In this document: piece by piece, positions 1-22,169 of the stretch | How the letters are laid out: each line of letters opens with the position of its first letter | How positions within the stretch are numbered: the first letter of the stretch is position 1 | DNA from: Eubacteriales bacterium | GTDB taxonomy: Bacteria; Bacillota; Clostridia; Oscillospirales; QAKW01 | Direction of reading: 5' to 3' | Assembly: GCA_045545255.1 (NCBI GenBank) | Contig: JAZQAQ010000102.1 | Location: 1-42,225 of the forward strand | DNA: 42,225 nucleotides | The notes under the pieces: model-generated | The model's database searches: none | What the model saw: only the letters and a program-made list of their open reading frames with translations | What the model was told of the DNA's origin: nothing | Translations under genes and position numbers: made by a program

Positions 1-81
1 CCCGTGTACGCCGACGAGACCGGTTTGACGAATTCGAGAACATTTTTGGCAATCTCCCAGCGTGTCAAAAATAAAAAATGA
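1..81 (+). CDS. C-terminal fragment of an unidentified gene entering from the left edge
   Basis: Frame 1 is open from base 1 to TGA at 79-81 (..LAISQRVKNKK*). Hairpins follow at 58-98 and 100-129. Too short to identify. Confidence 0.2.
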   Translation, partial: PVYADETGLTNSRTFLAISQRVKNKK

Positions 82-98
82 AGTTTTTTGACACGCTG
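58..98. repeat. Inverted repeat with 14-bp arms (CAGCGTGTCAAAAA / TTTTTGACACGCTG) and a 13-nt loop
   Basis: Read directly from the sequence. Lies between two convergent gene ends beside the terminator hairpin. Confidence 0.6.
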
Positions 99-99
99 T

Positions 100-129
100 A
101 AGACCACGGGAACTTGTTCCCGTGGTCTT
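100..129. terminator. Intrinsic terminator hairpin shared by convergent transcripts
   Basis: AAGACCACGGGAAC / GTTCCCGTGGTCTT forms a 13-14 bp stem that abuts the stop codon (130-132) of the minus-strand ABC ATPase gene. T-rich sequence lies on both sides. Confidence 0.65.
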
Positions 130-2720: not shown

Positions 2721-2721
2721 C

Positions 2722-3609: not shown

Positions 3610-3723
3610 AGAAAACACCTCCGATTTGATGCTTTTAGTATATCTCCAAAGCAAAAAACTGTCAATTAAAAGATTGATTTTATCGCAGGATTCCGTTATG
3701 ATTAAATAAAGGAGTGAAATATC

Positions 3724-4611: not shown

Positions 4612-4700
4612 GTTTACGAAAAAGTTTCGCAGCCGTCTGTGTTGATTTATCGGCGGCGTCTGTTATAATAAAATGAGAATTAAAAATCGGGAGGATCAAT

Positions 4701-6683: not shown

Positions 6684-6687
6684 GTGT

Positions 6688-8046: not shown

Positions 8047-8052
8047 TTTTAA

Positions 8053-8083
8053 GCCTCCCTCCTCTGAGGGAGGCAATTTTATT
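8053..8083 (+). terminator. Intrinsic terminator after the FAD oxidoreductase gene
   Basis: GCCTCCCTC-CTCT-GAGGGAGGC followed by AATTTTATT. Confidence 0.7.
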
Positions 8084-8168
8084 GAATCACTTTGACTTTT
8101 TTATTGCTTTACGCTTTAAAGTGTGATAAAATGTACAATAAGAAATGATCTGCCTTGGAGGTATGGGT

Positions 8169-8951
8169 ATGCTGCTGGCTGTGGATATTGGCAATTCAAG
8201 CATAACGGTTGGCGGTTTCCGCGAGGATGCGGAGCCGGTCTTTTCTATGCGCTTTGCGGCGGGCGAGCATCGCTCTGCCGATGAATATGCTGCCACCCTT
8301 CGGCAGGTCTTGCGGATGCGGAACGTGGAGCCGGAGGAGATCACCGATTGCGCCATCGCCTCGGTCGTGCCGCCATTGACCCATATTTTGGAGCAGGCCC
8401 TGCAGCTGATCCATCCCTGCCGCGTGCTGACAGTAGGTGCCGGCGTCAAAACCGGCTTTTCCATCCGTACCGATGCCCCCTCGGAGGTTGGCGCGGATAT
8501 TATCGCCAATGCCGCCGCAGCGGTAAAAGAGGGAGTGCCCGCCATTATCGTGGATATCGGGACGGCGACGACGGTCTTTGCCGTCAATAGCCGCAAGGAA
8601 TTGATCGGCGGCGTGATCCTGCCCGGGATTTCCTCTTCATTGGCGGGCCTGCGCTCTTCCACTGCTCAATTGCCCATCGTGGCACTGGAGCCGCTGAAAA
8701 AGGCAATCGGAAAAAATACTGCAGAATGTATCTCCATCGGGGTTTTGCAGGGGCACGCTTTTTCCGTAGACGGATTTATTGACCGCTTTTCCGCAGAGGC
8801 GGGGATGGAAAATCCTCAGATCATTGCCACCGGCGGACTTTGCAATCTCCTCTTGCCGCTATGCAACCATAATAATATAAAAGCGGAGCCGTTTCTGACC
8901 CTCAAGGGTCTGCGGGTAATTTACGAAAACACCCGTAAAAAAAGATGTTAA
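8169..8951 (+). CDS. coaX: Type III pantothenate kinase
   Basis: MLLAVDIGNSS... N-terminus and IVDIGTATT / ATGG motifs of the ASKHA-fold CoaX family. Start chosen 7 nt after GGAGG; in-frame alternatives at 8145 and 8163. Confidence 0.85.
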   Translation: MLLAVDIGNSSITVGGFREDAEPVFSMRFAAGEHRSADEYAATLRQVLRMRNVEPEEITDCAIASVVPPLTHILEQALQLIHPCRVLTVGAGVKTGFSIRTDAPSEVGADIIANAAAAVKEGVPAIIVDIGTATTVFAVNSRKELIGGVILPGISSSLAGLRSSTAQLPIVALEPLKKAIGKNTAECISIGVLQGHAFSVDGFIDRFSAEAGMENPQIIATGGLCNLLLPLCNHNNIKAEPFLTLKGLRVIYENTRKKRC

Positions 8952-9047
8952 ACGCTTCGGCGTATAGCATAAATATTTTGAACTGCGATGCACCTGCCGT
9001 AGGGTGGGGCGTCAGCATCGGGTAAAGTCCCGAAAGGAGAATTTCTT

Positions 9048-9659
9048 ATGGAAAGAAGTAAAAGAAGAGCGCAGATCGTCTATCTGACGCAGTTGGGCTT
9101 ATTGCTGGCTGTTGTGGTGGTGTTGCAGTATATCGGCAACTTCATTCCTGTGGTGGCAGGCATTAACCTGACCTTGATCCCCATTGTGGTGGGAGCGGCA
9201 CTGCTGGGTCCTCTCGGAGGACTGATCTTGGGTCTTGCCTGCGGTGCGATGACCTTGATGACCCCCATGGCAATGGCGATTATGAGCCATTCCTGGATAA
9301 TGGCCTTTTTGATCTGCTTCGGTAAGACCGGTCTTGCAGGCTTGGCTGCCGGTTGGATCTATCGCGGTCTTGCCAAGAAAAACCGTCACGTAGGAATCGT
9401 GGCTGCTTCGGTGGCTACCCCCATCATCAATACCGGTGTATTTGTGGGCGGTTGCGTACTGTTGCTGGACTTTTTCGTCGCCAATCCCGGTGTACTTGGC
9501 TTTGAAGCCATCGCCGCCAATATTTCGGCAGGCGGATTCTTTACGATGATCTGCGTTGCCATCGCACCGAACTTCATCATTGAGTTTTTGGTGAATGCCA
9601 TTGCTTCCACCGCCATCTATCAGGTTGTGAAAGTAATTGAAAAAAGAAAGAAAAATTAA
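9048..9659 (+). CDS. ECF-transporter substrate-specific (S) component; substrate unknown, possibly pantothenate given the adjacent coaX
   Basis: 203-aa protein with about 6 TM segments and an S-component-like N-terminal region (LTQLGLLLAVVVVLQYI...LIPIVVGAALLGPLGG). AAAGGAGA RBS. The substrate guess rests on context only. Confidence 0.6.
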   Translation: MERSKRRAQIVYLTQLGLLLAVVVVLQYIGNFIPVVAGINLTLIPIVVGAALLGPLGGLILGLACGAMTLMTPMAMAIMSHSWIMAFLICFGKTGLAGLAAGWIYRGLAKKNRHVGIVAASVATPIINTGVFVGGCVLLLDFFVANPGVLGFEAIAANISAGGFFTMICVAIAPNFIIEFLVNAIASTAIYQVVKVIEKRKKN

Positions 9660-9671
9660 GAGGAAAACAAT

Positions 9672-10133
9672 TTGAAAAAAATCGCCAGTTTTACCGTTAA
9701 TCACGATATTTTGGAATGCGGAATGTATCTTTCCCGTATCGACGGAGATGCAGTAACCTATGATATCCGTATGAAAAAGCCCAATGGCGGGGTTTATCTG
9801 GAGAATCCCGCGATGCATACCATTGAGCATCTTTTTGCCACCTACGCCCGCAACAGTGAATATGCCGATGAGATCCTTTATGTGGGACCTATGGGCTGCC
9901 GTACGGGCTTTTACCTCCTTTTGAGAGACAAAGTCTCCCACGAAGAGGCAATTAAATTGGTGCAGGAGTCGATGGCGTTTATCGCCGACTATGAGGGAGA
10001 GATCCCCGGCACCACCTCCATTGAGTGCGGAAATTACTTAGAGCACGATCTGGCAGGCGCAAAAAGGGAAGCCGCCGCAATTGCAGAGGTTCTTCGGGGA
10101 TGGACACCTGCAATGCTGGCTTACAAAGAATAA
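9672..10133 (+). CDS. luxS: S-ribosylhomocysteine lyase
   Basis: HTIEH metal motif and the GPMGCRTGFY cysteine. Length 153 aa. TTG start 7 nt after GAGGA. Confidence 0.9.
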   Translation: MKKIASFTVNHDILECGMYLSRIDGDAVTYDIRMKKPNGGVYLENPAMHTIEHLFATYARNSEYADEILYVGPMGCRTGFYLLLRDKVSHEEAIKLVQESMAFIADYEGEIPGTTSIECGNYLEHDLAGAKREAAAIAEVLRGWTPAMLAYKE

Positions 10134-10167
10134 AACGCATAAAAAATAGGAAAAGGAATGGATTAAA

Positions 10168-11568
10168 ATGGATTTTATTATTAAAATCATTGGCGCAGTT
10201 TACGGATTTTTATGGAAGGATCTCTTTACCGTTCCGCTGCCCGGCGGCGGGACCTTGGGTCTGCCCTTGCTGGTACTTCTTTTGATTCCGGCAGGCATCT
10301 ATTTCACGATTCGGACGAAGTTTCTTCCCATTCGGAAGTTTCCGGATATGCTGCGGGTCAGTATGGAAAAGAGCGATAAAAAGAGTGGTGCCATCTCCGG
10401 CTGGCAGTCCTTGATCGTTTCCACCGCTACCCGTGTAGGTATGGGAAATCTGGTTGGCGTTGTGGCCGCCATTTCTGCAGGCGGTGCAGGCGCGGTATTT
10501 TGGATGTGGATCACTGCTCTGATCGGCTCTTCCACTGCCTTTATTGAAGGTACGATGGCGCAGCTTCATAAGGAAAAGGATCCTCTCTACGGCGGATATC
10601 GGGGCGGTCCTGCCCAGTACATTCACGGCACTGTTGAAAAATGGCGCAAAAAGCCGATGAAAAAGTCGATTCTTGCGATTTTGTTTGCGATCTCCGGTCT
10701 GATCTGCTGGGGCGGTATCAGTCAGGTAATCGGCAATTCCGTTGCTGAATCCTTTACCAACGCATTTGATATCAAGCCTCTGTATACTGCCATTGTTATT
10801 ACGGTGCTGGCGGCAATTATCGTCTTGAGAAAGAATGCAACCGTCAAGGTGCTGGATATTATGGTCCCCATTATGGCATGCATTTATTTCTGCTTGACCC
10901 TCTTTATCATTTTCAAGAATATCGGGCAGCTGCCCAATGTGTTCGGGCGCATCTTCTCCGAAGCCTTCGGTCTCCGTCAGGTGGCGGCAGGCGGCTTCGG
11001 CGCAGTGCTGATGAACGGCGTTAAGCGCGGTCTCTTCTCCAATGAAGCAGGCTCCGGCTCCGCTCCTTGCGCAGCGGCAGCCGCCGAGACCGACCATCCC
11101 GCAAAGATCGGTCTTCTGCAGGCTTTGGGTGTAATTATTGATACCATCATCATCTGTACCTGTACCGCAATGATTATGCTGCTGGCGCCGGAAGGAAAGC
11201 TGGCGGGATTGCAGGGAATGGCTCTGCTGCAGACCTCTATGGAGCACCATCTGGGCGTTTTTGGTATGATCTTTGTGGCAGTGGTGATGTTCCTCTTCTG
11301 CTTCTCCACCTTCATCGGCGTGCTGTATTATGCCCGCCCCAATGTGGCATATCTCTTCGGCGATAACTGGACTTCCCAGACCCTCTATAAGGTCTTTGCT
11401 CTGATTATGCTGTTTGTCGGCTGTATTGCAGCGTATACCTTTGTGTGGGATCTGGGCGATGTGGGCATTGGTCTGATGACCATCGTTAATCTCTTGGTAT
11501 TGGTCCCCGGTGCCAAGCCCGCCTTGAATGCCCTGAAGGACTACGAACAAAAGAAAAAGCAAAAATAA
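10168..11568 (+). CDS. Alanine/glycine:cation symporter (AGCS family)
   Basis: 466-aa polytopic protein with the family motif GLFSNEAGSGSAP. Confidence 0.9.
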   Translation: MDFIIKIIGAVYGFLWKDLFTVPLPGGGTLGLPLLVLLLIPAGIYFTIRTKFLPIRKFPDMLRVSMEKSDKKSGAISGWQSLIVSTATRVGMGNLVGVVAAISAGGAGAVFWMWITALIGSSTAFIEGTMAQLHKEKDPLYGGYRGGPAQYIHGTVEKWRKKPMKKSILAILFAISGLICWGGISQVIGNSVAESFTNAFDIKPLYTAIVITVLAAIIVLRKNATVKVLDIMVPIMACIYFCLTLFIIFKNIGQLPNVFGRIFSEAFGLRQVAAGGFGAVLMNGVKRGLFSNEAGSGSAPCAAAAAETDHPAKIGLLQALGVIIDTIIICTCTAMIMLLAPEGKLAGLQGMALLQTSMEHHLGVFGMIFVAVVMFLFCFSTFIGVLYYARPNVAYLFGDNWTSQTLYKVFALIMLFVGCIAAYTFVWDLGDVGIGLMTIVNLLVLVPGAKPALNALKDYEQKKKQK

Positions 11569-11572
11569 ATTC

Positions 11573-11600
11573 AAAAAAGGACGCGTCAGCGTCCTTTTTT
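11573..11600 (+). terminator. Intrinsic terminator after the AGCS gene
   Basis: AAAAAAGGACGC-GTCA-GCGTCCTTTTTT. Confidence 0.8.
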
Positions 11601-11622
11601 GAATTATTTCACCGAAAAACTC

Positions 11623-11651
11623 TTGAAAGTTGACAGAAATTATTTTATAAT
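11623..11651 (+). promoter_or_regulatory. Sigma-A-type promoter of the NifU-like/GGGtGRT operon
   Basis: TTGAAA (11623-11628), a 17-nt spacer, then consensus TATAAT (11646-11651), about 45 nt upstream of the ATG. Confidence 0.6.
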
Positions 11652-11698
11652 AAAACCATCTGTGCAATAAACAGCAAATTTTGGAAGGAGAAACCATC

Positions 11699-12391
11699 AT
11701 GAACTATTCACATGAAGTTGAAAGTATGTGCGTGGTAGCCAAGGGTCCCCATCACGGTCCCGCCCCCATCCCCGAAGAGGGCAAGTGGGTAAAGGCTACT
11801 CAGAACAGCGATATCAGCGGACTTTCCCACGGTATCGGCTGGTGCGCTCCCCAGCAGGGCCGCTGCAAGCTGACCCTGAACGTTAAAGAAGGTATTACCG
11901 AGGAAGCTCTGGTCGAGACCTTGGGCTGCTCCGGTATGACCCACTCCGCCGCTATGGCTGCCGAGATCCTGCAGGGCAAGACTCTCTTGGAGGCTCTGAA
12001 CACCGACTTGGTGTGCGACGCCATCAACGTTGCTATGCGTGAGATCTTCAAGCAGCTGGTCTACGGTCGTACCCAGACTGCCTTCTCCGAGGACGGTCTG
12101 CCCATCGGTGCTTCTCTGGAAGACTTGGGTAAGGGTCTGCGCTCTCAGGTTGGTACGATGTTTGCTACCAAGGTCAAGGGCGTGCGCTATATGGAAATGG
12201 CAGAGGGCTACATCCTGAAGGTGGCTCTGGATGCCAATAACGAGTGTATCGGCTATCAGTTTGTCAATCTGGGCAAAATGATGGATATGATCCGTAAGGG
12301 TGCTGATCCGAAGGATGCCTTCGAGAAGAATATCGGTACATACGGTCGGTTCGATGATGCTGTGAAGTACATCGATCCGAGAGCAGAATAA
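11699..12391 (+). CDS. NifU/IscU-like Fe-S scaffold-type protein, the usual partner of GGGtGRT genes
   Basis: Cys-containing segments GWCAPQQGRCKL, LGCSGMTHSAAMA and LVCDAINVA resemble the NifU N-terminal domain. Start set at the ATG at 11699 after GGAAGGAG; the ORF track start is a TTG at 11681. Codon usage is strongly biased. Confidence 0.75.
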   Translation: MNYSHEVESMCVVAKGPHHGPAPIPEEGKWVKATQNSDISGLSHGIGWCAPQQGRCKLTLNVKEGITEEALVETLGCSGMTHSAAMAAEILQGKTLLEALNTDLVCDAINVAMREIFKQLVYGRTQTAFSEDGLPIGASLEDLGKGLRSQVGTMFATKVKGVRYMEMAEGYILKVALDANNECIGYQFVNLGKMMDMIRKGADPKDAFEKNIGTYGRFDDAVKYIDPRAE

Positions 12392-12408
12392 GGAAGGAGG
12401 AACGTTCA

Positions 12409-13407
12409 ATGGCTACTTTTGAAGGATATGAGAGAAGAATCGGCAAGATCCAGCCCGTATTGGAGCAGTATGGCTTCGCTACTCTGGATGAAGCCAATGA
12501 GTATTGCTTGTCCAAAGGCATTGATGTTGCCTCTATCGTGAAGGGTGTCCAGCCCATCGCAGTTGAGAATGCCTCCTGGGCTTATACCCTGGGCGCAGCT
12601 ATCGCTCTGAAGAACAACAGCAAGAACGCTGCTGACGCAGCAAGAGATATCGGTGTGGGTCTGCAGGCATTCTGTATCCCCGGCTCCGTTGCCGAGACCA
12701 GAAGCGTAGGTCTGGGTCACGGTAATCTGGCTGCTATGCTGCTGGAAGAAGAGACCAAGTGCTTCTGCTTCCTGGCAGGTCACGAGTCCTTTGCCGCTGC
12801 AGAGGGCGCAATCGGTATCGCCCGTACCGCCAATAAGGTGCGTAAAGAGCCTCTGCAGGTTATCCTGAACGGTCTCGGTAAGGATGCCGCTTATATCATC
12901 TCCAGAATCAACGGCTTCACCTATGTGGAGACCGACTATGATTTCTATACCGGCGAGCTGAAGATCGTCAACTCCACCGCTTATTCCGACGGCGACCGTG
13001 CAAAGGTTCGTTGCTACGGCTCCAATGACGTTCTGGAAGGCGTTGCTATTATGAAGCACGAGCACGTAGACGTTTCCATCACTGGTAACTCCACCAACCC
13101 CACTCGGTTCCAGCATCCCGTTGCAGGTTCCTATAAGAAGTGGTGCTGGGAGAACGGCAAGAAGTACTTCTCCGTCGCTTCCGGCGGTGGTACCGGCCGT
13201 ACCCTGCATCCCGATAATATGGCCGCAGGCCCCGCTTCCTACGGCTTGACCGATACCATGGGTCGTATGCATGGTGATGCTCAGTTCGCAGGCTCCTCCT
13301 CCGTTCCTGCCCACGTCGAAATGATGGGCTTGATCGGTGCCGGTAACAACCCCATGGTTGGTATGACCGTGGCAGTTGCCGTAGCAGTAAGCGAAGCTTT
13401 GAAATAA
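12409..13407 (+). CDS. GGGtGRT protein (conserved family of unknown function)
   Basis: Contains the eponymous motif in SVASGGGTGRTLHPDN. 332 aa. AAGGAAGGAGG RBS and a strong terminator. Confidence 0.85.
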   Translation: MATFEGYERRIGKIQPVLEQYGFATLDEANEYCLSKGIDVASIVKGVQPIAVENASWAYTLGAAIALKNNSKNAADAARDIGVGLQAFCIPGSVAETRSVGLGHGNLAAMLLEEETKCFCFLAGHESFAAAEGAIGIARTANKVRKEPLQVILNGLGKDAAYIISRINGFTYVETDYDFYTGELKIVNSTAYSDGDRAKVRCYGSNDVLEGVAIMKHEHVDVSITGNSTNPTRFQHPVAGSYKKWCWENGKKYFSVASGGGTGRTLHPDNMAAGPASYGLTDTMGRMHGDAQFAGSSSVPAHVEMMGLIGAGNNPMVGMTVAVAVAVSEALK

Positions 13408-13415
13408 GGTGAATC

Positions 13416-13455
13416 AAAACAAAAAGAGTTGCCTTGAGGCAACTCTTTTTGTTTT
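13416..13455 (+). terminator. Strong intrinsic terminator after the GGGtGRT gene
   Basis: 18-bp arms AAAACAAAAAGAGTTGCC / GGCAACTCTTTTTGTTTT around a TTGA loop. Confidence 0.85.
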
Positions 13456-13497
13456 AAAAGTGTTTATAAGTACAAGTTTTGAATTAATAGAGGGAAG

Positions 13498-14082
13498 ATG
13501 TTATCATATTATTTAAGTTTTATTGACGACGAAAACAGTCGCATTAAATTTGAAGAATTATACTATGCATATCGAAAACAAATGATATTGGTTGCAAAAA
13601 AGTATATTCAGAATGATGATGATGCTCAAGATGTGGTTCATGATGTCTTAGTTGATATTGCTGCAAAACATATGTCGTTGATTCAATCTATTAATGATTC
13701 CAGAGATGTAAGAAATTACTTATTAACAGCTACAAAAAATAGAGCGATAAATGAAATAAAAAGAAGAGATAAGTTTGTATCGTTTGAAAAAGTCGAGAGT
13801 GTTGATCTGTCTAAATATTCAACTTTAAATGATTCTGATTTTATTGATTTGTTATGTGAACGATTAGAATATAAATGTGTTTTAGAGGCAATGCTTAAGT
13901 TAGATGAACCGTATAGAGATGTTTTGTATTATCATTTTGTTGTGGAATTAAAAATAGCGGATATTGCAAAACTTCTTGACCGAAAGGTTCAAACGGTAAA
14001 AAAACAACTAGTTAGAGGAAAAAAACAATTGTTAAGCATATTAGCTGTGGAAGGAATTTTTGATAATTATGCCAATGAATAA
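13498..14082 (+). CDS. ECF-type sigma-70 family RNA polymerase sigma factor
   Basis: Region 2-like FEELYYAYRKQMILVAKKYIQNDDDAQDVVHDVLV and a region 4 HTH (LKIADIAKLLDRKVQTVKKQLVRGKKQL). 194 aa. Lies in the AT-rich island. Confidence 0.85.
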   Translation: MLSYYLSFIDDENSRIKFEELYYAYRKQMILVAKKYIQNDDDAQDVVHDVLVDIAAKHMSLIQSINDSRDVRNYLLTATKNRAINEIKRRDKFVSFEKVESVDLSKYSTLNDSDFIDLLCERLEYKCVLEAMLKLDEPYRDVLYYHFVVELKIADIAKLLDRKVQTVKKQLVRGKKQLLSILAVEGIFDNYANE

Positions 14083-14737
14083 AGCGGATTTATTTGATGC
14101 ATTTAGAAAAGCAGCCAGTGTCGAGTTCGAAGATATTCCGCCGGAAATATGTATTGATTATGCTTTTTCAGTAGATTTTGAATGTAAACTAAAAAAACTG
14201 ATAAAAAAAGAAAAACAAAGGTTGTGGCATTTTATTAATACGGGACCTAAACGGGTAATAATCATTATGATGGTATTTGCTTTATTATTTTCCACTGCAT
14301 GTAGCATCCCATCGATTAGAGAACCAATTTGTTCCTTCTTTGTTGAAGTATATAAGGATTTCGTTCATTATGTTTTTGAGGATGGCATTGATTCGATAAA
14401 AACTAAGTATAAACTCATTGCAGTTCCGAGTGGTTTTAGTAAAACGACGGTGTTCGAAACAGAATCCATCATTGTGACCACATATGAAAATTCTAATGGT
14501 GATTATTTAGAGTTTTCTCAAACAATAACCGATGATGTGGATCTTTATTTGGATTCAGAACGTGGAGAACTAACAGTAATTGACACAACAAATGTGAAAT
14601 ACTATCTTTATACACGAGAAAATTTGATACATATAGTTTTTGTGCGAGATTCATATGTTTTTAATTTGACATATCAAGGTGAACTTGAAAAGGAAGTTAT
14701 TTTCGATATTGCAACTTCAATGGCAGCGGTAGAATAA
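14069..14737 (+). CDS. Putative anti-sigma factor, single-pass membrane protein with a DUF4367-like C-terminal domain
   Basis: Overlaps the sigma gene end. Short cytoplasmic N-terminus, TM segment (VIIIMMVFALLFSTA) and an extracytoplasmic domain with TYENSNGDYLEFSQT-type motif. Alternative starts at 14060 and 14075. Confidence 0.7.
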   Translation: MPMNKADLFDAFRKAASVEFEDIPPEICIDYAFSVDFECKLKKLIKKEKQRLWHFINTGPKRVIIIMMVFALLFSTACSIPSIREPICSFFVEVYKDFVHYVFEDGIDSIKTKYKLIAVPSGFSKTTVFETESIIVTTYENSNGDYLEFSQTITDDVDLYLDSERGELTVIDTTNVKYYLYTRENLIHIVFVRDSYVFNLTYQGELEKEVIFDIATSMAAVE

Positions 14738-14788
14738 CTAATGGAGACCTGATTTTGTAATCATGAAAAATCAGGTCTCCATTAGTTA
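14735..14788. terminator. Bidirectional terminator between convergent island genes
   Basis: Perfect 22-bp arms TAACTAATGGAGACCTGATTTT / AAAATCAGGTCTCCATTAGTTA that include both stop codons. Confidence 0.8.
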
Positions 14789-15238
14789 ATATGTTTTTTT
14801 AACTTCGCATGTTATTTTGTCCGCAGAACCGCCGTTTCCATAAATTTCATATACGGCAGTAATTCGGTATGTTCCGGTTGATGGTAGTTGAAAAGTATGA
14901 GAGCCAGTATATGAGAAGTTATATATTGTATCAACCCATTGATTATTAGGTTGATTAATATCAACGCTTTTCCAGAATAATCCTAAAAAGCGTTTCTCGA
15001 TTTTTGTTGTTATGATTGCTTTTGTTGTGGTGTTTTGGATTCCAACATAACGGTTTGATATTGTGATTATTCCGGAACTAGATACAGAAGCAGAAGTTTG
15101 TGCAGAAACTACATTGTTATATAAAGGAGCTACAGTGTGAGAGGAATCAATGGTAGCTGCGTGAGTATATGGCGTTGACATAATGATTAAGAATAAAATC
15201 AAAATGATCGATAAATTTCTTTTTAATATTTTATTCAT
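14786..15238 (-). CDS. Secreted hypothetical protein (150 aa)
   Basis: Signal peptide MNKILKRNLSIILILFLIIMSTPYTHA. Ser/Thr/Asn-rich and beta-rich mature part. No family recognised. Confidence 0.65.
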   Translation of the reverse strand: MNKILKRNLSIILILFLIIMSTPYTHAATIDSSHTVAPLYNNVVSAQTSASVSSSGIITISNRYVGIQNTTTKAIITTKIEKRFLGLFWKSVDINQPNNQWVDTIYNFSYTGSHTFQLPSTGTYRITAVYEIYGNGGSADKITCEVKKTY

Positions 15239-15277
15239 GTTATTCCTTTCATTAATACAAAATTTAAAAATTTTCTT

Positions 15278-16543
15278 TTAAGGAAGAACAGTTAATTCGC
15301 TTAAACAAAGGACTTCGTCTGACCACATGTGTAAAGTGGTTGAAGAACCCCAAATTGTATTTACATATTCGTAGCGAACTTGACCAAATGCTCCCATATA
15401 TGCATACGATTCATCTGTGACATTGCCCTCGTAAATATAATTAGTTCGTACGACTCCACCAGATGGATCATCTTCATAGCCGTCTATATCGGCGGAGTTC
15501 CATCCATAGAGTTTATAAATATTCCAAGAAACAATATTATCGTTATATATGCCCCCTATTTCTATAGTGCGGGTTGTTACTGTTGTACTCGACATAGTTA
15601 GAGGAACACCAAATGTGGTCCATCCATAATAAGGAATATAAGCTGGAAAAGTTAGATTTTGAACAACACTTCCGTTAGAAGGTGTTACCAATCCGGTAGA
15701 ATGTAAATACTTATCATTACTAATAATTTCAATCCGGTAGGTGTCTGGGTAGACGGTGAGAGATCCGGTGGTGAAACCATGTACATTTTTTAAATATGAT
15801 TTAAACTCACTACAATGGGAATTTACTTTTGCATAGACGGACATAGTATTCTGATTTTCAATCTCGTTAGCGTGGTAAATAGCGATTGTGGCAGCATCAT
15901 AACCAGAAGCATCGATTGTATCATAACCCTGTAAACGTATTGTTGCATCTACTGCCGTAGACATAACGGAATCATTTGATTGGGTTTCGTTTGATGGAAC
16001 TGACCCTTTTTTTGCTTGAACATTAAGTGCTGAGAGCTTGGAAATGTTAGAGGAAAACTCACCAAAGTAAATGATTTGAGGAGCTATTTTTCCAGCACAA
16101 CCGATGGTTAAAACAGAAAATGTTTCTGACTTTGAAATATAGTTGAAATCGAGTGTTAGTTGCTCAATTTTATTATTGTAGGATATCACGGCGTCTAAGA
16201 CACCGACATATCCGTTGGTATCATATGAATCTATTTTTCCAGTAGCAGGTACACTAATTTGTTTTTCTGGAAAAGTAATAGTAATTGATGCTTTTGTAGC
16301 ACAAGTTGATTTGAGATTCTGAATACTTACCGAGATTGATGAAACTGTATAATTTCTTTTTTCATTTTCGGTCGATGAAGAGTATTGTAGTGTGTTAGTT
16401 TGTGATTTATTTAATTGATTATTGGGGGATGAGGTGAATTGAATCATATTTGCTGTTTCCAAAGTTGTGAAAGAACAAAGATTTAGGTTTGATAATGTGA
16501 TGACTATTATCAATAGGGAAAGAATGAGGCGCTTTTTCTTCAT
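15278..16543 (-). CDS. Secreted hypothetical protein (about 421 aa)
   Basis: Start set at MKKKRLILSLLIIVITLS (signal peptide); the ORF track start is 16594. No family recognised. AT-rich codon usage like its neighbours. Confidence 0.65.
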   Translation of the reverse strand: MKKKRLILSLLIIVITLSNLNLCSFTTLETANMIQFTSSPNNQLNKSQTNTLQYSSSTENEKRNYTVSSISVSIQNLKSTCATKASITITFPEKQISVPATGKIDSYDTNGYVGVLDAVISYNNKIEQLTLDFNYISKSETFSVLTIGCAGKIAPQIIYFGEFSSNISKLSALNVQAKKGSVPSNETQSNDSVMSTAVDATIRLQGYDTIDASGYDAATIAIYHANEIENQNTMSVYAKVNSHCSEFKSYLKNVHGFTTGSLTVYPDTYRIEIISNDKYLHSTGLVTPSNGSVVQNLTFPAYIPYYGWTTFGVPLTMSSTTVTTRTIEIGGIYNDNIVSWNIYKLYGWNSADIDGYEDDPSGGVVRTNYIYEGNVTDESYAYMGAFGQVRYEYVNTIWGSSTTLHMWSDEVLCLSELTVLP

Positions 16544-16598
16544 GATTATTTTCCTTTCTTTTCTAATTAATAGTGATAATGTTTTTATAATCAACAGT

Positions 16599-17216
16599 TC
16601 ATATGTTATCCTCCTCCTTTTTTCTTAAAATGTAATATGAGGTGCATATTAGGGCGATCAAGGGATAGATATTGAAAAGAAAACTTTGTAAATAACTTGT
16701 TAATTTATATACAATGAATGGGACTGTCATTTGGGAAAGTATGCTTGAAAAGAATTCTAATGCAGTTGAGTAGGTGAATAGCAGAATGCCTATAATTATC
16801 CATATTGAGGAAAAATATTTCAATTTAATTATTTTGAAGTAATGGCCGGTAAAAAAAATAATTAAGAATAAGAGAACTAATTGGATGATAAATGAACTTT
16901 TTATCTCGCCAGATATCCAAAAAAGAGTGAGAGGTAATATGATACCACCAAAGATCAAGGCTATTTTATAAAATAAATAGAGCCAATCTTTGGTGTTGGC
17001 TTTATTGGTTTTGCAAAAGACCAAAAGAACAAGAAGAGAGGCACTTATACGAATGGCTAGTTGGAAAGAATCATAGATTATCACATTAAAATGGCTGGTT
17101 GTATTGCCAAAGAATAAATTGATAGTAAATGGACGAATAGTCCCAATAATTAATAAGTTGATTAATGAGTATATTGTTATGGCTTTCCAAAAAGATTTTA
17201 AGGAATTCATATTCAT
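16599..17216 (-). CDS. Polytopic membrane protein (205 aa), function unknown
   Basis: About 6 hydrophobic segments and no catalytic motif recognised (no AgrB-type or CPBP-type residues). First gene of the minus-strand island operon. Confidence 0.6.
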   Translation of the reverse strand: MNMNSLKSFWKAITIYSLINLLIIGTIRPFTINLFFGNTTSHFNVIIYDSFQLAIRISASLLVLLVFCKTNKANTKDWLYLFYKIALIFGGIILPLTLFWISGEIKSSFIIQLVLLFLIIFFTGHYFKIIKLKYFSSIWIIIGILLFTYSTALEFFSSILSQMTVPFIVYKLTSYLQSFLFNIYPLIALICTSYYILRKKEEDNI

Positions 17217-17340
17217 ATAATAAAGATCCTTGATTAAGAATTTGGTGTTTCTATTAATATAACAACGATAGAAACAAAAAGAGGACAGAAAAAAAGAATT
17301 TTTTTGTATGCGGTGGATTTTAAATAAAAAATCACCAATA

Positions 17341-17388
17341 AATCCTATGATTAGTATGACTGTGGCTGTATCTGAGGCTCTGAAGTAA
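17341..17388 (+). pseudogene. Diverged duplicate of the last ~15 codons of a GGGtGRT gene
   Basis: Translates to NPMISMTVAVSEALK*. The intact gene ends NPMVGMTVAVAVAVSEALK* (13348-13407). The copy is AT-richer and has no gene body upstream. Confidence 0.65.
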
Positions 17389-17442
17389 GGTTAGACCGCT
17401 GAAATCAGCGCAGACCGACTAAAATAAAGAAAGAACCTGCTT

Positions 17443-17797
17443 GTGGCACCCTCCGTAAGGAAGGTGCCACAGTTATATTCGCCTAACGGCGAGTGATATT
17501 GCTACGCAGTTATATTATGCTACGCATAGTGATATTGTCCTTCGGACAGTTAAATGGGCGAATATAATATCACTGAAACCGTTAGGTTTCAATATCACTT
17601 TTGCTGCAAGGCAAAAATATCACTGCAAACGATAGTTTGCAATATCACTTTACCTGCCGAGAAAAATACTCTTTATTTTCGGCGAGTATTTACCTTTCTC
17701 AAAGTACGTAACCCACTATGACACTTTCACAATACAAAAGTATCATTTCTCTTATAAAAGGAAAAAGGAGACAACTTCTTTACGAAGTGTCTCCTTT
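17443..17797 (+). mobile_element. ~355-bp non-coding structured element inserted into a terminator loop (copy A of a repeat family; MITE/PATE-like)
   Basis: Its flanks, 17429-17442 and 17798-17814, reconstitute the intact terminator seen at 22172-22201. Subterminal hairpins at 17442-17471 and 17767-17794. No ORF with an RBS. Homologous in layout and tail sequence to 23112-23451. Confidence 0.55.
17566..17649 (+). repeat. Four AATATCACT motifs at an exact 25-nt period, separated by three different 16-nt hairpins
   Basis: Motif starts at 17566, 17591, 17616 and 17641. Spacers are GAAACC-GTTA-GGTTTC, TTTGC-TGCAAG-GCAAA and GCAAAC-GATA-GTTTGC. Inverted motif copies (AGTGATATT / AGTTATATT) lie at 17471, 17492, 17508 and 17528. 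Confidence 0.85.
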
Positions 17798-17820
17798 CGG
17801 CAGGTTCTTTTTTTGTGTCT

Positions 17821-17878
17821 TCGCGTCGGGATGACCGCTCGGCGTATCATATACGCCTTCGGGACCGTCCCGACGCGA
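17821..17878. repeat. Nested palindrome
   Basis: Outer 11-bp arms TCGCGTCGGGA / TCCCGACGCGA enclose an inner hairpin GGCGTAT-CAT-ATACGCC. GACCGCTC (17833-17840) is also complementary to GAGCGGTC (17893-17900). Confidence 0.6.
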
Positions 17879-17972
17879 TCTGCATCTGATTTGAGCGGTC
17901 TGCGGGAGGAATATCGGAGAAAACGAAAATCTCATCCCATTTGAAAGGTTTGTAAAAACCAAATGAATTAGA

Positions 17973-17999
17973 GACCCCTGAAAAGGGGTCCCTTTTTAT
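17973..17999. terminator. Terminator hairpin at the end of the AraC-family gene
   Basis: GACCCCT-GAAA-AGGGGTC lies next to the stop at 17996-17998. There is a T-run on the plus side and T-rich sequence on the minus side. Confidence 0.55.
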
Positions 18000-18820
18000 T
18001 TCTCATGCTGTTTTCGGTATTCAGTGGGGGTGGTGTGGTAGGTGGCTTTAAAGACCTTATTAAAATAGGTGACGTTTTTAAAGCCTACTTCCGTCGAAAT
18101 TTCGATGATGCTGTGGGAGGTAGAAACAAGCAGTTTTTCTGCCTGTTTCAGTCGTTCCGAGCGGATATAGTCGTTTAGGGAAACACCGGTTTCTTTTTTG
18201 AAAAGTCGGCAAAGGTAGCGAGGATTATAATAAAAGGTCTCTACAAGGTTTTTGGCATACAACTCAAAGTCAAGATTTTCGCGGATATAGTTTTTGATAT
18301 TACGGATCAGGGGTTTTTCGTTCGTCTGAGCATCAGGAAAGTTTTGAAGCAAAAAAAGGATGTAGTTTTCGATGGTTTGGGAGACGCTTCGGCACAGTTC
18401 GGGGGAGAAATCCTGCTCCAAGCTATCTAAAGGGAGCGGCTGTCCCTTTGCCTTTTTTCTCATTTTGCGAAGGGAGTCTTCTCCGTCCGAAATATTGCCG
18501 ATAAAGATGATGGCGGCAACATCGTCCTCTATCAGAACGGGGTGGGTGTACTCATAGATGCCGTTGACACAATGTGCGCCGAAGGCTGTTTTGGTTTTCA
18601 TGGTCTTTTTGATAACGAAGTTTCGGCACCGCAAACATCTTGAGTAGGATTGACTGCTGAGTCTTTTGAAACTGTCACAGATAGGGGTGGCATGAATTTG
18701 GTGATCGGACGGCAGCTTGCAGGCGGTGTTGCCGTAATCCTTGAAAAACAAAACCACAATGTGAAGGTTTGTTTTGTATTCGATCTGTTGGATGAGTTGA
18801 TATAAAAGAGAAACGGACAT
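17996..18820 (-). CDS. AraC-family transcriptional regulator with a PocR-like N-terminal sensor domain
   Basis: C-terminal double HTH (YAKNLVETFYYNPRYLCRLFKKETGVSLNDYIRSERLKQAEKLL...FKNVTYFNKVFKATYHTTPTEYR). Cys-rich N-terminal half. Start set at the ATG at 18820 after GGAG; a TTG lies at 18832. Confidence 0.85.
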   Translation of the reverse strand: MSVSLLYQLIQQIEYKTNLHIVVLFFKDYGNTACKLPSDHQIHATPICDSFKRLSSQSYSRCLRCRNFVIKKTMKTKTAFGAHCVNGIYEYTHPVLIEDDVAAIIFIGNISDGEDSLRKMRKKAKGQPLPLDSLEQDFSPELCRSVSQTIENYILFLLQNFPDAQTNEKPLIRNIKNYIRENLDFELYAKNLVETFYYNPRYLCRLFKKETGVSLNDYIRSERLKQAEKLLVSTSHSIIEISTEVGFKNVTYFNKVFKATYHTTPTEYRKQHEK

Positions 18821-18948
18821 CTTGAACTCCAAAGCACATATTTTTGAAAATTATAGTATAAATGTTTCATTTTTTCAAGTTTTAAAACGATTATTATAAG
18901 AATTTGATTGGGTATGGTGTTACAATAAATAAAAAAGGAGGCGTTTTT

Positions 18949-20175
18949 ATGAATAAGTATGATTTGATCGTTGTCGGTGGCGGAATTTCCGGCATCTGCG
19001 CCGCGGTAGCGGCGGCACGGCAGGAACTTTCGGTGTTACTGCTTGAGGAGTCCGGTGTTCTCGGCGGTGCCATGTCCAACAGCTTGGTGTATCCCTTTAT
19101 GCGTTTTCGGACGCGTGGAGAGGGAGCGAAGCTTCTTTCGGCGGGGTTATTTTCTGAAATTCAAAAACGCCATGCGACTTACGGAGACTCCTCTTGGGAG
19201 ACCTATAAGCTGATCTTCGATGAAATGATGGAGGAGGCGGGGGTGGCCGTCCTGCTCCATGCCACGGTGATGGAGGCCGTCTGTGAGGGGCGGCAGGTCG
19301 TCGGAGTTAAGGCGGCGACCAAAAGCGGTGTTCTGGACTTCTATGCCGATTTCTTTATCGATGCCAGCGGCGACGGTGCCTTGATCGCTCTGACGGGGTG
19401 CGATTATCAGCTGGGCAGAGAAAGCGACGGCTACTGCCAGCCCATGACCACCTGCTTTCGGTTGAGCAACGTGGATATTCCGCAGTTTTTGAAGGAAAAG
19501 GAGACCCTGCAACAGAAGTATAAGGAATACAGAGAAAAGGGTCTCATTCAAAATCCACGTGAAAATATCTTGACTTTTAACGGGATCGGGGACGGCATTT
19601 TGCATTTCAACACCACCCGTATCGTGATGGAGGATCCCACCGATGCCTTTGGGATCAGCCGTGCGGAGATGGGCGCCCGTAAGCAGATCAAGGAGATGTT
19701 TGATTTCATGCGGGAGAATGCAGAGAGCTGTAAAGACGCAAACCTCGTTTACGTGGCAAATCACATCGGTATCCGTGAGAGCCGCAAGCTGAAGGGGGTT
19801 CATATTCTGACCGAGGAAGAGCTGGTTGCCTGCAAGGATTTTGAGGATACCATCGCCCTCGGCTGTTATGATATCGATATCCATAACCCCACCGGAACGG
19901 GAACTTATATCTATAAATTCCAAGGGGATGATTATTACAAGATTCCCTATCGCTGTTTGTTGCCCAAGGAATACGATAATATGCTGGTCGCGGGACGATG
20001 TCTTTCCGCCGATCACGCCGCTCATTCTTCGGTGCGTATCATTCCCATCTGCGCCAATATGGGCGAGGCGGCGGGTATTGCGGCGGCAGTCTGCAAAAAG
20101 GACGGCACCAATGCCCATACCGTAGACGTCCAAAAGGTACGCAATACCTTGCTTGAGAAGGGAGCAATATTATGA
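18949..20175 (+). CDS. FAD-dependent oxidoreductase, paralog of 6688-8046
   Basis: YDLIVVGGGISGICAA dinucleotide motif. Shares IGIRESRK, DIDIH and LVAGRC..(S/A)..H......VR..P blocks with the first copy. AGGAGG RBS before the ATG at 18949. Confidence 0.85.
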   Translation: MNKYDLIVVGGGISGICAAVAAARQELSVLLLEESGVLGGAMSNSLVYPFMRFRTRGEGAKLLSAGLFSEIQKRHATYGDSSWETYKLIFDEMMEEAGVAVLLHATVMEAVCEGRQVVGVKAATKSGVLDFYADFFIDASGDGALIALTGCDYQLGRESDGYCQPMTTCFRLSNVDIPQFLKEKETLQQKYKEYREKGLIQNPRENILTFNGIGDGILHFNTTRIVMEDPTDAFGISRAEMGARKQIKEMFDFMRENAESCKDANLVYVANHIGIRESRKLKGVHILTEEELVACKDFEDTIALGCYDIDIHNPTGTGTYIYKFQGDDYYKIPYRCLLPKEYDNMLVAGRCLSADHAAHSSVRIIPICANMGEAAGIAAAVCKKDGTNAHTVDVQKVRNTLLEKGAIL

Positions 20176-22169
20176 CGGGGATCAACGAAGGGGAGGAAGC
20201 GGAGTTCCTGGTTCCGGTCGGCCTTACGGGAAACTGGCAGACACCGGAGGATGTTGCCGCTACTGTTACACAGCAGCACGAACGGTACGGGTTGAAACGG
20301 TTTGCGCTGGCCGCGCCCGGCTTGGCATGGAGATACAAAGGATATCCTGACGTAACGGTCTATGAGCAGTTTGCCGAAATCTTTTGTCGGGTACGTGAAT
20401 TGTTAAAGGGTCGGGATCTGGCTCTCGGTTGGTGGAGCTCTGTCAATTTGAAGTCCGGCAGACACCCGGATATTCAGCCCGTTGTAAGGGGGGACGGAGA
20501 AGAGCATCCCTTTGCCAACTGCCCCTCCGATGACGAATTTAAGGAACGTCACGCGAAAAATATAGCTACGTTCTGTCGGATCGCAAGGCCGGATTTTATC
20601 ATTATTGAGGATGATTACTGTATCAGTGCGGCGGCAGGCAAATACGGCTGTTTTTGCAAAAACCATCTGGCTGAATTTGAAAAACGTGTGGGAAGACGTT
20701 ATGAGCGGGAAGAATTGGTGCGCATTTTCGGAAAAAAGGAGCAGGACTCCATTGAGCTTCTGAAACGGTACAAGGAAATGCTCAAGGACACTATGGTGGA
20801 TTTTTCTGTTCAGATCAGACGGGAATTGGACAAGCAGACACCGGAAATCCCGATCTGTCTTGCCCAAGCAGGAACCATTGACAACGACGGAAATGCAACA
20901 GAGGCGGTTTGTCGGGCACTGGCAGGCAAGAATCACCGTCCTCTTTGTCGACTTTACGGTGCCTATTACAATGGCGGCGAGATCAAAAATGTTCCCGAAC
21001 TGCTGTACCACGCCGTTTACTGTAAGCAGCATATCAGTGAGGATTTTGGGCTTTATCATGAATCGGATACCTATCCGCATACGCGCTTTTTCACCTCGGC
21101 AAGAATGATGAAAACTTATTTGGGAATTACCTATTCTCAGGGGCTTATCGGTTCTGTTTTTCAGACCCAGCAGCATTTGGACGATCCCGGTGAGGAAACT
21201 GCCTACGGTGAAATGCTGAAAAGCGAGCGTGCTCGCCTGACGGAGCTGATCAAAACGGTATCGGGCTGTACGCCCATGGGGGTGGAGATTCCTTATGATC
21301 CGTTTTATAATTTTATGGAGGAAAGCAGAAATCCGCTTTGGGTAAGACCGGTGACCGCCTTTGGTATCCCCTTTGTCACCACCCCTGCCAAAACGGCATT
21401 TCTGGATGAGGTGAGCGCAAAGTATCTCGGCGATGATGAACTGAAACGCTATCTGTCCGGCAATCTCTTTTTAGACGGGGACGCGGCCTATCACTTGACA
21501 CAACGGGGATACGGCAGATATCTGGGCGTTTCGGTCGGGGAGAACGCCGTTACGGACGAGATGAAGTACGATTTTGCGGCAAAGGAAGTGATTCGGCCGC
21601 CCTTTGACCAATATTCCGTGGGTAAAAATATGCCTGCGGCACATACCTATGCAAAGGGGAAAAATGGCATCCCCAGAAGTATGACCCACCTCGAAGAAAA
21701 GACAGAGATCATCAGCGAGGTTCTTTCCTGCGAAGGAATCCCGTTTACCGTCGGGATGACACGCTTTGAAAACGAGCTGGGCGGTCGGGTCGTGGTGATG
21801 GGGATGACCTTGAGAGGGAACGGCTCGCAATCGCTGTTCAATTACCGCCGTATGAGGCTGTTTGATCAACTGCTTTTATGGGGAAATGCGGAAATTCCCT
21901 TTGTGAAAAACGAGCCGTATCTCCATCTGATCGCCAATAAGGGCGGAAGCGATAAGGATTTTTCCTATCAGATGACGGTGATCAATCTGGCGGAGGATAC
22001 GGTGAGCGGTGCAGAAATATATCTGCCGGAATGTATGCGGAATAAAGAAATTCTGTATCTTACCGCTGACGGATGCTGGGAAAAGGCGGATATTGTCGAA
22101 ACCAAGGATGGGATGATGATCAAGCATCCGTTGGAAATCTGTGAACCGTTGTATCTAACATTCAGATAG
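20172..22169 (+). CDS. Uncharacterised 665-aa cytoplasmic protein (possibly glycoside-hydrolase-like TIM barrel; unverified)
   Basis: ATGA start/stop overlap with the FAD gene. No signal peptide. Not similar to the 660-aa partner of the other FAD gene. Confidence 0.7.
   Translation: MTGINEGEEAEFLVPVGLTGNWQTPEDVAATVTQQHERYGLKRFALAAPGLAWRYKGYPDVTVYEQFAEIFCRVRELLKGRDLALGWWSSVNLKSGRHPDIQPVVRGDGEEHPFANCPSDDEFKERHAKNIATFCRIARPDFIIIEDDYCISAAAGKYGCFCKNHLAEFEKRVGRRYEREELVRIFGKKEQDSIELLKRYKEMLKDTMVDFSVQIRRELDKQTPEIPICLAQAGTIDNDGNATEAVCRALAGKNHRPLCRLYGAYYNGGEIKNVPELLYHAVYCKQHISEDFGLYHESDTYPHTRFFTSARMMKTYLGITYSQGLIGSVFQTQQHLDDPGEETAYGEMLKSERARLTELIKTVSGCTPMGVEIPYDPFYNFMEESRNPLWVRPVTAFGIPFVTTPAKTAFLDEVSAKYLGDDELKRYLSGNLFLDGDAAYHLTQRGYGRYLGVSVGENAVTDEMKYDFAAKEVIRPPFDQYSVGKNMPAAHTYAKGKNGIPRSMTHLEEKTEIISEVLSCEGIPFTVGMTRFENELGGRVVVMGMTLRGNGSQSLFNYRRMRLFDQLLLWGNAEIPFVKNEPYLHLIANKGGSDKDFSYQMTVINLAEDTVSGAEIYLPECMRNKEILYLTADGCWEKADIVETKDGMMIKHPLEICEPLYLTFR

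Follow-up and report, generated by a model that had tools for sequence, protein, structure and literature searches.

A recombinase-less AT-rich island between two ends of a GGGtGRT gene, and the reuse of this gene end as an integration site in Clostridia

How does the end of one gene come to stand twice, about 4 kb apart, with DNA of quite another composition in between? The question is raised by a contig of 42,225 nt from an Eubacteriales bacterium (Clostridia; Oscillospirales; JAZQAQ010000102.1 in assembly GCA_045545255.1), the whole of which we analysed and refer to as the window, in which an intact gene encoding a GGGtGRT protein (PF14057) is followed by an AT-rich island of five open reading frames (ORFs) and then by a second, orphaned gene tail. 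The island is best read as a decayed or non-autonomous integrative element resembling a cis-mobilizable element (CIME), and we consider it likely that a foreign segment of ~3.99 kb (13368-17360) entered the GGGtGRT gene by conservative site-specific recombination at the short sequence GTATGAC. Other loci are referred to by L numbers.

Two gene ends around an AT-rich island

The live gene ends in NPMVGMTVAVAVAVSEALK and a stop codon, encoded at 13348-13407. Across the island (13408-17340; 3,933 bp) the G+C content is 31.9%, ranging from 0.28 to 0.39 in 300-nt windows, compared with 52.8% in the left flank (1-13407) and 50.5% in the right (17389-42225), and G+C at third codon positions (GC3) is 0.20-0.35 in the five island ORFs against 0.55-0.65 in neighbouring genes. 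On the far side, an orphan tail of 48 nt (17341-17388) encodes NPMISMTVAVSEALK and a stop, and the island is thus bounded by direct repeats derived from the GGGtGRT 3′ end (13348-13407 and 17341-17388), which have diverged to ~75% identity with a 12-nt gap. When the gene’s last 26 residues and stop were compared with the six-frame translation of the whole window, the gene itself being masked, the orphan was the best match (local alignment score 54), a score reached by none of 200 composition-matched first-order Markov sequences (33.7 ± 3.1, maximum 45). nhmmer searches with gene tails did not recover it at E < 1, whereas the protein-level test did. A transposon target-site duplication was rejected as the source of the repeat, which is 48 nt long, diverged and coding-derived, and so was an invertible or alternative C-terminal cassette, the copies being in direct orientation with no invertase.

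Pfam scans and an integrase jackhmmer search found no integrase, resolvase, transposase, other recombinase or phage gene on the island or in the whole 42-kb window. The original prediction, made from the letters of the window, had placed an AT-rich island at this gene end, with values judged by eye (25-30% against 50-60% G+C) that were right in substance and slightly too extreme in detail. It had also taken the 48 bp for a gene tail, had seen no recombinase within or beside the island, and had read the arrangement as the footprint of an element that integrates into a gene’s 3′ end and carries a copy of its target. All of this was upheld, the first by the alignment score, the second for the entire window, and the third by an empty site and by the recurrent use of this gene end by tyrosine-integrase elements, as described below. 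It also proposed a BLAST search for a donor; blastn gave no match of the island to a plasmid collection or to 50,697 phage records.

An empty site and hybrid gene tails

The AraC/PocR regulator on the far side of the island has an 80% ortholog (P0128) on a 198-kb contig, L180, from a different species, which is syntenic with the window over ~8 kb to the left and ~6 kb to the right. The shared order is Peripla_BP_2, NIR_SIR, PfkB, 658-aa protein, FAD_oxidored, Pan_kinase, ECF-S, LuxS, NifU-like and GGGtGRT, followed by AraC, FAD_oxidored, Metallophos and Lipase_3. L180 is the empty site that had been sought among relatives, with 72 bp from the GGGtGRT stop to AraC, and relative to it the window carries an insertion. 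Its live tail reads ATG GTT GGT ATG ACT GTA GCT GTT GCA GTT GCT GTA TCT GAA GCA CTG AAA TAA and is followed by ACCGCTGAAATCGGCG... (ACCGCTGAAAT...) and then a terminator, and a second genome of the same species (L181) has the same TCT/CTG tail and flank.

This tail and flank match the orphan and its flank in the window, not the window’s live tail. The orphan ends GTA TCT GAG GCT CTG AAG TAA and continues as ACCGCTGAAATCAGCG..., while the live gene ends GTA AGC GAA GCT TTG AAA TAA and continues as GGTGAATC..., such that the orphan, L180 and L181 share GTA TCT GAR GCN CTG AAR TAA and the live tail has AGC and TTG instead. The flank beginning with ACCGCTGAAATCAGCG (F1) aligns to the DNA directly 3′ of the L180 live stop (within an alignment of 17362-17439 to 9902-9973 of L180rc) and also to L001, the closest relative by gene identity (score 56 compared with 27 ± 5 in shuffles). 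By contrast, the GGTGAATC... sequence 3′ of the live stop has no counterpart in L180 or L001, and the terminator hairpin at 13416-13455 is missing from the empty site.

The window and L180 genes are 90.4% identical overall, with no mismatches over 13345-13367 and 6/119 over 13249-13367, compared with 11/40 over 13368-13407 (gene-wide rate 8.9%, binomial P = 5e-4). The orphan shows the opposite arrangement, with 4/28 mismatches to the right of the core and 6 over the 16-23 nt aligned from the core leftwards (core included). For both tails, the best single breakpoint is GTATGAC, a 7-bp sequence that is also the longest block of identity between them (host-like parts 4/51 mismatches, foreign-like parts 17/63; Fisher P = 0.014, on a small sample). 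Host and element sequence appear to be joined reciprocally in the two tails around GTATGAC, the pattern expected of attL and attR. The live gene’s last 40 nt and its terminator probably arrived with the island, and most of the orphan is probably the resident gene’s former end, although the exact crossover point within the tails is a reading of the alignments.

In the sequence of events that we propose, the crossover would have fallen within the 7-bp GTATGAC core, 47 nt before the end of the ORF, and the incoming DNA would have carried its own gene-end copy of ~60 nt encoding NPMISMTVAVAVAVSEALK and a stop. Recombination would then have fused the resident gene to the element’s last 13 codons, stop and strong terminator (attL), leaving the resident end, its 3′ flank and its terminator behind the element’s right arm as the orphan (attR), ~4 kb downstream. 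The predicted empty-site junction (attB) is ...AACAACCCCATGGTTG-GTATGAC-TGTGGCTGTA..., and that of the excised circle (attP) is ...CCAATAAATCCTATGATTA-GTATGAC-CGTGGCAGTTGCC.... We judge 7 nt of identity too little for homologous recombination of the RecA type, and therefore infer a site-specific enzyme. Since intact elements occupying this site in other Clostridia carry tyrosine integrases, analogy suggests that the enzyme was one too, encoded on the island at one time and now gone.

The orphan would afterwards have lost 12 nt in a slippage-prone GCNGTN tract and changed an otherwise invariant glycine. It carries a Val to Ile change and a Ser in place of a Gly that is invariant in 157 intact genes, and its low G+C content (39.6%, GC3 0.40) is largely due to the 12-nt loss and two G-to-A changes. 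Only its first ~13 nt look element-borne: these form the last 13 nt of the right arm (17341-17353, AATCCTATGATTA), an AT-shifted copy of NPMV(G) codons. No gene homology was found left of ~17338, and the idea of a decayed attR of the type seen in L142 (below) was dropped. Both cores are still present, and attR has just ~13 nt of element-side homology and the 12-nt deletion beside its core.

Which of the two tails is foreign decides between this account and the earlier one, in which the orphan shared the island’s composition and had travelled with it from a low-GC donor. In its strongest form the whole orphan is a passenger from such a donor, the live tail belongs to the host, and the insertion point is at the stop or beyond it (TAAGGT). 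The live tail does have the amino acids and AGC/TTG codons of L001 at normal divergence (85% over 60 nt), TAAGGT stands at the end of both tails, and the first 13 nt of the orphan are shifted towards AT. We nevertheless regard this as quite improbable. The empty sites in L180 and L181 have the orphan’s tail type (GTA TCT GAR GCN CTG) on the same flank, the mismatches of the live tail to L180 are concentrated in its last 40 nt, the orphan of L142 is the host’s own end, and a crossover after the stop would leave an element no reason to carry a tail copy. Neither part of the earlier claim was supported: with a GC3 of 0.40, the orphan resembles host tails and lies near the live tail (GC3 0.47; 48% G+C), unlike the island genes at 0.20-0.35, and past GTATGAC it matches the L180 tail, flank and terminator. 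Nor is a low-GC donor required, because AT-richer integrase elements at this site carry host-like tail copies.

Several observations weigh against recombination at GTATGAC as the origin of the island. With no integrase, integrase fragment or other recombinase on the island or contig, the enzyme is drawn from analogy only. The island also lacks the features of integrase-bearing elements at this site (tail length, hairpin and integrase position), and no related intact parent element was found. The breakpoint statistics come from ~110 aligned nt (P = 0.014), and the empty site belongs to a different species with flanks 75-79% identical. A conspecific genome without the island was not found: exact-protein look-ups of GGGtGRT, of the NifU-like and AraC proteins (two candidate starts each) and of a 438-aa ORF as first delimited were without result, and genome and metagenome scans with the GGGtGRT protein returned other species only, at ≤95% amino-acid identity. 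Finally, L001 (88.6% nucleotide identity) has the AGC/TTG tail directly followed by F1; either this tail is native there, with the element having acquired its tail type in that lineage, or L001 has lost an element by deletion. Separately, the L181 contig (6779-6907) ends at the CCG ATG (Pro-Met) tail codons, ≤3 nt from the left boundary of the window’s orphan. This may be chance, or the assembly may have broken off at the edge of a repeat in a genome that likewise bears two tails.

The GGGtGRT 3′ end as an integration site in other genomes

We surveyed 160 loci encoding GGGtGRT relatives, using a profile of the protein’s last 40 residues, and counted integrases in the 123 loci that reach ≥1.5 kb past the gene. 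A tyrosine recombinase (PF00589) gene or fragment started within 400 bp after the GGGtGRT stop in 9/123 loci, and 9 of the 12 integrase-bearing loci in 2.2 Mb had the integrase within the 2.2% of sequence that this interval represents. Tyrosine-integrase elements have repeatedly used the GGGtGRT 3′ end as an integration hotspot. Orphan tails on the same strand 3′ of an intact gene were found in L049, L142, L041, L009, L012 and L078 (Table 1), and a weaker one in L003.

The clearest comparison comes from L142, where a 7.7-kb element with a tyrosine integrase lies between two tail copies, while four conspecific loci (L138, L140, L141 and L143; gene 99.2-99.5% identical) have empty sites. The tail and flank of the empty sites equal the orphan and flank of L142, and the gene-attached end of L142 differs; occupied and empty sites in this species therefore indicate that elements bring a replacement end and that the orphan is the host’s original end. 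An IMG/VR contig (L175) carries a tandem array of tail, integrase, element, tail and integrase, each element beginning with a copy of the GGGtGRT tail and a hairpin (CACATCAT...ATGATGTG) common to both; the array runs through 9755-9855, 10001-10939, 17570-17668 and 17804-18748, and no full gene lies upstream of the first tail. Integrase-bearing elements at GGGtGRT are 10-15 points more AT-rich than their hosts, yet have host-like tail copies.

The window’s island resembles the tyrosine-integrase elements of L041, L142, L074, L080, L109 and L175 in its position at the GGGtGRT 3′ end, its replacement end with hairpin, the displaced host end and its higher AT content. However, elements of the L041/L142 type have a 90-95-nt tail copy starting from VEMMG, the CACATCAT...ATGATGTG hairpin and an integrase within ~300 bp of the new stop, with the crossover upstream of NPM (L009, L041), whereas in the window’s island the tail copy is ~60 nt long, the putative crossover falls at GTATGAC, the hairpin differs and an integrase is missing, leaving 0/3 of the type’s features.

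The window’s species is represented by a second, independent assembly (L161; GCA_045580735.1), in which the island, the two tails and the right flank recur with 0 mismatches over 13279-17581. This bears on whether the locus is an assembly chimera, in which an AT-rich contig was misjoined at a conserved gene. The window is a contig of a metagenome-assembled genome, and GGGtGRT is conserved enough to confuse assemblers; but L161 reproduces every base of the left junction, the island, the orphan and the right flank, and the orphan and original flank are positioned as a real insertion predicts, and we rate the probability of a misjoin as next to negligible. At its left end (L161 1-124, corresponding to window ~13155-13278), 87 nt of unrelated AT-rich DNA replace the gene body and are followed by 37 diverged nt with six differences from the window (three synonymous, three not); both stretches abut the tail at ~13246, and the two assemblies are identical from 13279 onwards. 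The arrangement resembles the right arm of a further element, one with a tail copy of ~165 nt, which apparently integrated upstream and displaced the tail-plus-island unit, and the structure points to recent integration at the GGGtGRT end within the window’s species. The further element itself was not found: an exact 25-mer from the foreign 87 nt had no match in viral contigs, and blastn-short with the first 100 nt of L161 gave just chance matches of 14-18 nt in the window and related loci.

Integrase-less cargo cassettes between tail repeats recur in the window, L049 and L078. In L049 (11002-14626), a GT2 glycosyltransferase, a GtrA-like protein and a 576-aa membrane protein lie between 122-nt repeats that differ at one position, and in L078 (1857-8248) a transporter-like protein and three further large ORFs precede a long orphan tail; these functional labels were read from ORF translations, not family scans. 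Such cassettes raise the alternative that the island never had an integrase and is a CIME-like satellite with att sites, still moved in trans or in cis by the integrases of co-resident elements. The recurrence of integrase-less tail-bounded islands (the 3.6-kb GT2/GtrA-like cassette of L049, the 6.4-kb cassette of L078) speaks for it, as do the five intact island ORFs and the element abutting the tail-plus-island unit in L161, an accreted arrangement described for cis-mobilisation (PMC5704250). On the other hand, attR is short (besides the core, 13 nt of homology on the element side), has lost 12 nt next to the core and may no longer serve as a substrate; and in the searches made the island was seen in one species only, with neither a circular junction nor a second copy found. 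We consider a satellite rather unlikely. A wider account holds that the GGGtGRT 3′ end is a widely used, hitherto unrecognised clostridial hotspot for unrelated integrase families with differing crossovers in the last ~165 nt, that the C-terminus is largely element-supplied, and that the cassettes of the window, L049 and L078 form a satellite class with a tail copy only, moved by resident integrases; we regard this as possible and put it forward tentatively, with some doubt.

The gene itself is mosaic among close relatives: comparing 12409-13407 of the window with L001, L081, L002 and L003 gave 100% identity in some 90-nt windows and 77% in others. Between L001 and L081, for example, the first 90 nt are 100% identical and positions ~541-770 only 77-79%. 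Such mosaicism would favour a homology-driven cassette exchange, in which a RecA double crossover, with one exchange to the left of the island within the conserved GGGtGRT gene and one to its right in the shared flank, brought the island from an island-bearing relative, and so would the identity of the window and L161 across 13279-17581, with differences clustered outside. This would account for spread, not origin, as the reciprocal hybrid duplication would still need one making, and the mismatches at the two ends of L161 fall within the other element’s arm and a Gut-1 region that is repeated, both of them places where noise from assembly is likely. We hold it to be highly improbable as an explanation of the island.

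Among the window, L001, L081, L002 and L003, divergence within the gene is always highest in its last 60 nt (68-80% identical in the window’s clade, compared with 84-89% for the remainder), which fits repeated tail replacement. These patterns suggest that the last 13-55 codons of GGGtGRT are repeatedly overwritten by mobile elements, which would explain the variability of its tail and calls for caution in reading that variation as an adaptive or phylogenetic signal. A gene end with an orphan tail also offers a new and easy landmark for integrative elements and their cargo in uncultured Clostridia.

L003 is probably another decayed insertion. Its live tail (953-1100) encodes GATVAVAVAVEESLK and a stop, continues as TAATAAGGCTTTTCAAGCC and resembles the element-borne end of L041 (TAATAAGGCTTTCGAGG). 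Its orphan (3451-3527), ~2.4 kb downstream, encodes PMVGMAVSEALK and a stop and belongs to the TCT/CTG class; the two tails are separated by an AraC gene and a 444-aa ORF interpreted as GH29 fucosidase-like. Orthology by descent between the orphans of L003 and the window was dropped, as similarity of their right flanks was not significant (28 compared with 28.6 ± 5.4). tblastn with the tail against phage records gave matches in ‘Bacteriophage sp.’ contigs, none of them informative on attP: one (H4) carries a full GGGtGRT gene and is thus bacterial DNA, and the remaining matches lie at contig ends.

Known systems, cargo and surroundings

Islands at tRNA and tmRNA genes restore the gene that they enter with an element-borne 3′ end, and serial direct repeats mark successive insertions. 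Unlike at these and ssrA islands, the target here is a protein-coding ORF, so that replacement alters codons, and at least 13 C-terminal residues would be element-supplied. In Dehalococcoides, a horizontally acquired island is reported at the single-copy ssrA gene, with site-specific mobilisation (PMC3146451). A close likeness is with ICESt1/ICESt3 and CIMEs at fda in Streptococcus thermophilus, where CIMEs and decayed remnants of integrative and conjugative (ICE) or integrative and mobilizable (IME) elements lie at the 3′ end of a protein gene, as reviewed in PMC5704250 (citing Pavlovic 2004 and Bellanger 2011). As in that system, the window’s island lies at a conserved gene’s 3′ end between direct repeats from the gene end and lacks integration and transfer genes, and the site is reused with tandem accretion (L175, L161); it differs in its target, GGGtGRT (PF14057), in the divergence of its repeats (~75%, 12-nt gap) and in an attR that may be dead. 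The mechanism of integration into and restoration of a gene’s 3′ end, followed by decay and accretion, is thus already well known from fda and from tRNA and ssrA islands. GGGtGRT as a target appears to be new, not being described as an integration site in the searched literature that mentions the gene, as far as mostly titles and abstracts tell, and so does the recurrence of integrase-less tail-bounded cargo cassettes at this gene (window, L049, L078). The protein, whose function is unassigned, appears in proteomics papers on the rumen, chicken gut and human gut.

Table 1 Features of the GGGtGRT locus in the window and orphan tails at other GGGtGRT loci.
Locus	Feature	Position	Strand	Basis or remark
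Window	GGGtGRT gene, full length	12409-13407	+	PF14057, E 1.7e-193
Window	Resident part of GGGtGRT gene, through putative crossover block GTATGAC (13361-13367)	12409-13367	+	Comparison with L180
Window	Replacement gene end, 13 codons and stop; probably island-borne, P′ side of attL	13368-13407	+	Mismatch excess against L180
Window	Terminator hairpin, 18-bp stem, loop UUGA, right after replacement stop; probably island-borne	13416-13455	+	RNAfold -24.8 kcal/mol
Window	Cargo: extracytoplasmic function (ECF)-type sigma-70 factor	13498-14082	+	Sigma70_r2 and Sigma70_r4_2; GC3 0.195
Window	Cargo: DUF4367 protein	14060-14737	+	PF14285, E 3e-12
Window	Cargo: 150-aa protein, N-terminal hydrophobic segment, convergent with sigma pair	14786-15238	-	No Pfam match
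Window	Cargo: 421-aa protein, function unassigned, rare family	15278-16543	-	No Pfam, PHROG or NCBIfam match
Window	Cargo: ~205-aa hydrophobic protein, probably membrane; first gene of leftward operon	16599-17216	-	ORF translation; no family match
Window	Putative island right arm, P side of attR	17217-17353	+	No gene homology left of ~17338
Window	Second GTATGAC copy, putative crossover core in attR	17354-17360	+	Best breakpoint in three-way comparison with empty site
Window	Probable displaced resident gene end (B′), decaying after 12-nt loss in GCNGTN tract	17361-17388	+	Comparison with L180/L181
Window	Probable original 3′ flank F1 (ACCGCTGAAATCAGCG...) and left arm of original terminator	17389-17440	+	Alignment with L180, L001
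Window	AraC/PocR regulator, original downstream neighbour of GGGtGRT	17996-18832	-	Pfam match
L049	Orphan tail	3.6 kb away		122 nt, one mismatch
L142	Orphan tail	7.7 kb away		
L041	Orphan tail	~10 kb away		
L009	Orphan tail	1.2 kb away		Frameshifted
L012	Orphan tail	Directly after stop		Second weak fragment ~1.9 kb further
L078	Orphan tail	6.4 kb away		

All five island ORFs are intact, and they encode a sigma factor, a DUF4367 protein and three proteins of no assigned function, with no integrase, relaxase or other transfer gene among them. The sigma factor scored 55.6 bits against TIGR02937 (sigma70-ECF; cutoff 42.9), and its nearest homologues are just ~55% identical. The DUF4367 gene always lies 3′ of the sigma gene in homologous modules (L170-L174), and the protein is presumed to be the membrane anti-sigma partner, a role suggested by gene position alone. 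Homologues of the 150-aa protein (E 1e-39 to 1e-41) keep the same convergent position in L170-L174, and the three genes form a module conserved on these contigs. The 421-aa family comprises 5 clusters among 5.8 billion proteins; elsewhere it adjoins a ~234-aa protein and an HTH_34 gene, and its neighbours in L167 are a relaxase, ParB and a large serine recombinase. The cargo may be read as an ECF sigma/DUF4367/small-protein module together with a two-gene operon for envelope proteins, and the window suggests that a small cassette of regulatory and envelope genes can remain in place once its integration machinery has gone. No homologues of the island proteins were found in the 160 related GGGtGRT loci. 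A prophage was rejected: the island has no phage structural, lysis or replication genes, the sole PHROG matches being the sigma factor and a family of no known function, and no phage record matched by blastn.

To the right of the orphan, an insertion of ~360 bp (17441-17799) splits the original terminator hairpin, whose arms now lie at 17426-17440 and 17800-17814 and which is intact in L180. The insertion contains a Gut-1 RNA motif (RF01706) at 17470-17560 on the + strand (57.7 bits, gathering score 50) and a second, sub-threshold copy at 17562-17650 on the - strand (39.9 bits). In L004, the Gut-1 segment has a counterpart at 12075-11736 (82-85% identity) and a partial one at 1699-1859, and in this it resembles a small repeat or mobile element. 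A 16-nt inverted repeat (AGACCGCTGAAATCAG / CTGATTTGAGCGGTCT; 17393-17408 and 17886-17901) encloses the stretch that follows the orphan, and L001 pairs in the same way right after its live stop (9556-9571 and ~9689-9704), two base pairs having changed in a compensatory manner (G-C to A-T and C-G to T-A), which suggests a conserved long-range stem 3′ of GGGtGRT, the second arm of which is missing from L180.

Upstream, a sodium:alanine symporter gene (10134-11573) between the LuxS and NifU-like genes is present in the window and L002 and absent from L180, which has 7 bp there, and from L001, and appears to be a second indel beside the GGGtGRT operon. The GGGtGRT locus is also flanked by two gene pairs (4701-8046 and 18904-22169), in each of which a ~660-aa protein without Pfam matches accompanies a FAD-dependent oxidoreductase (PF12831); the gene order is reversed between the pairs, which may be paralogous.

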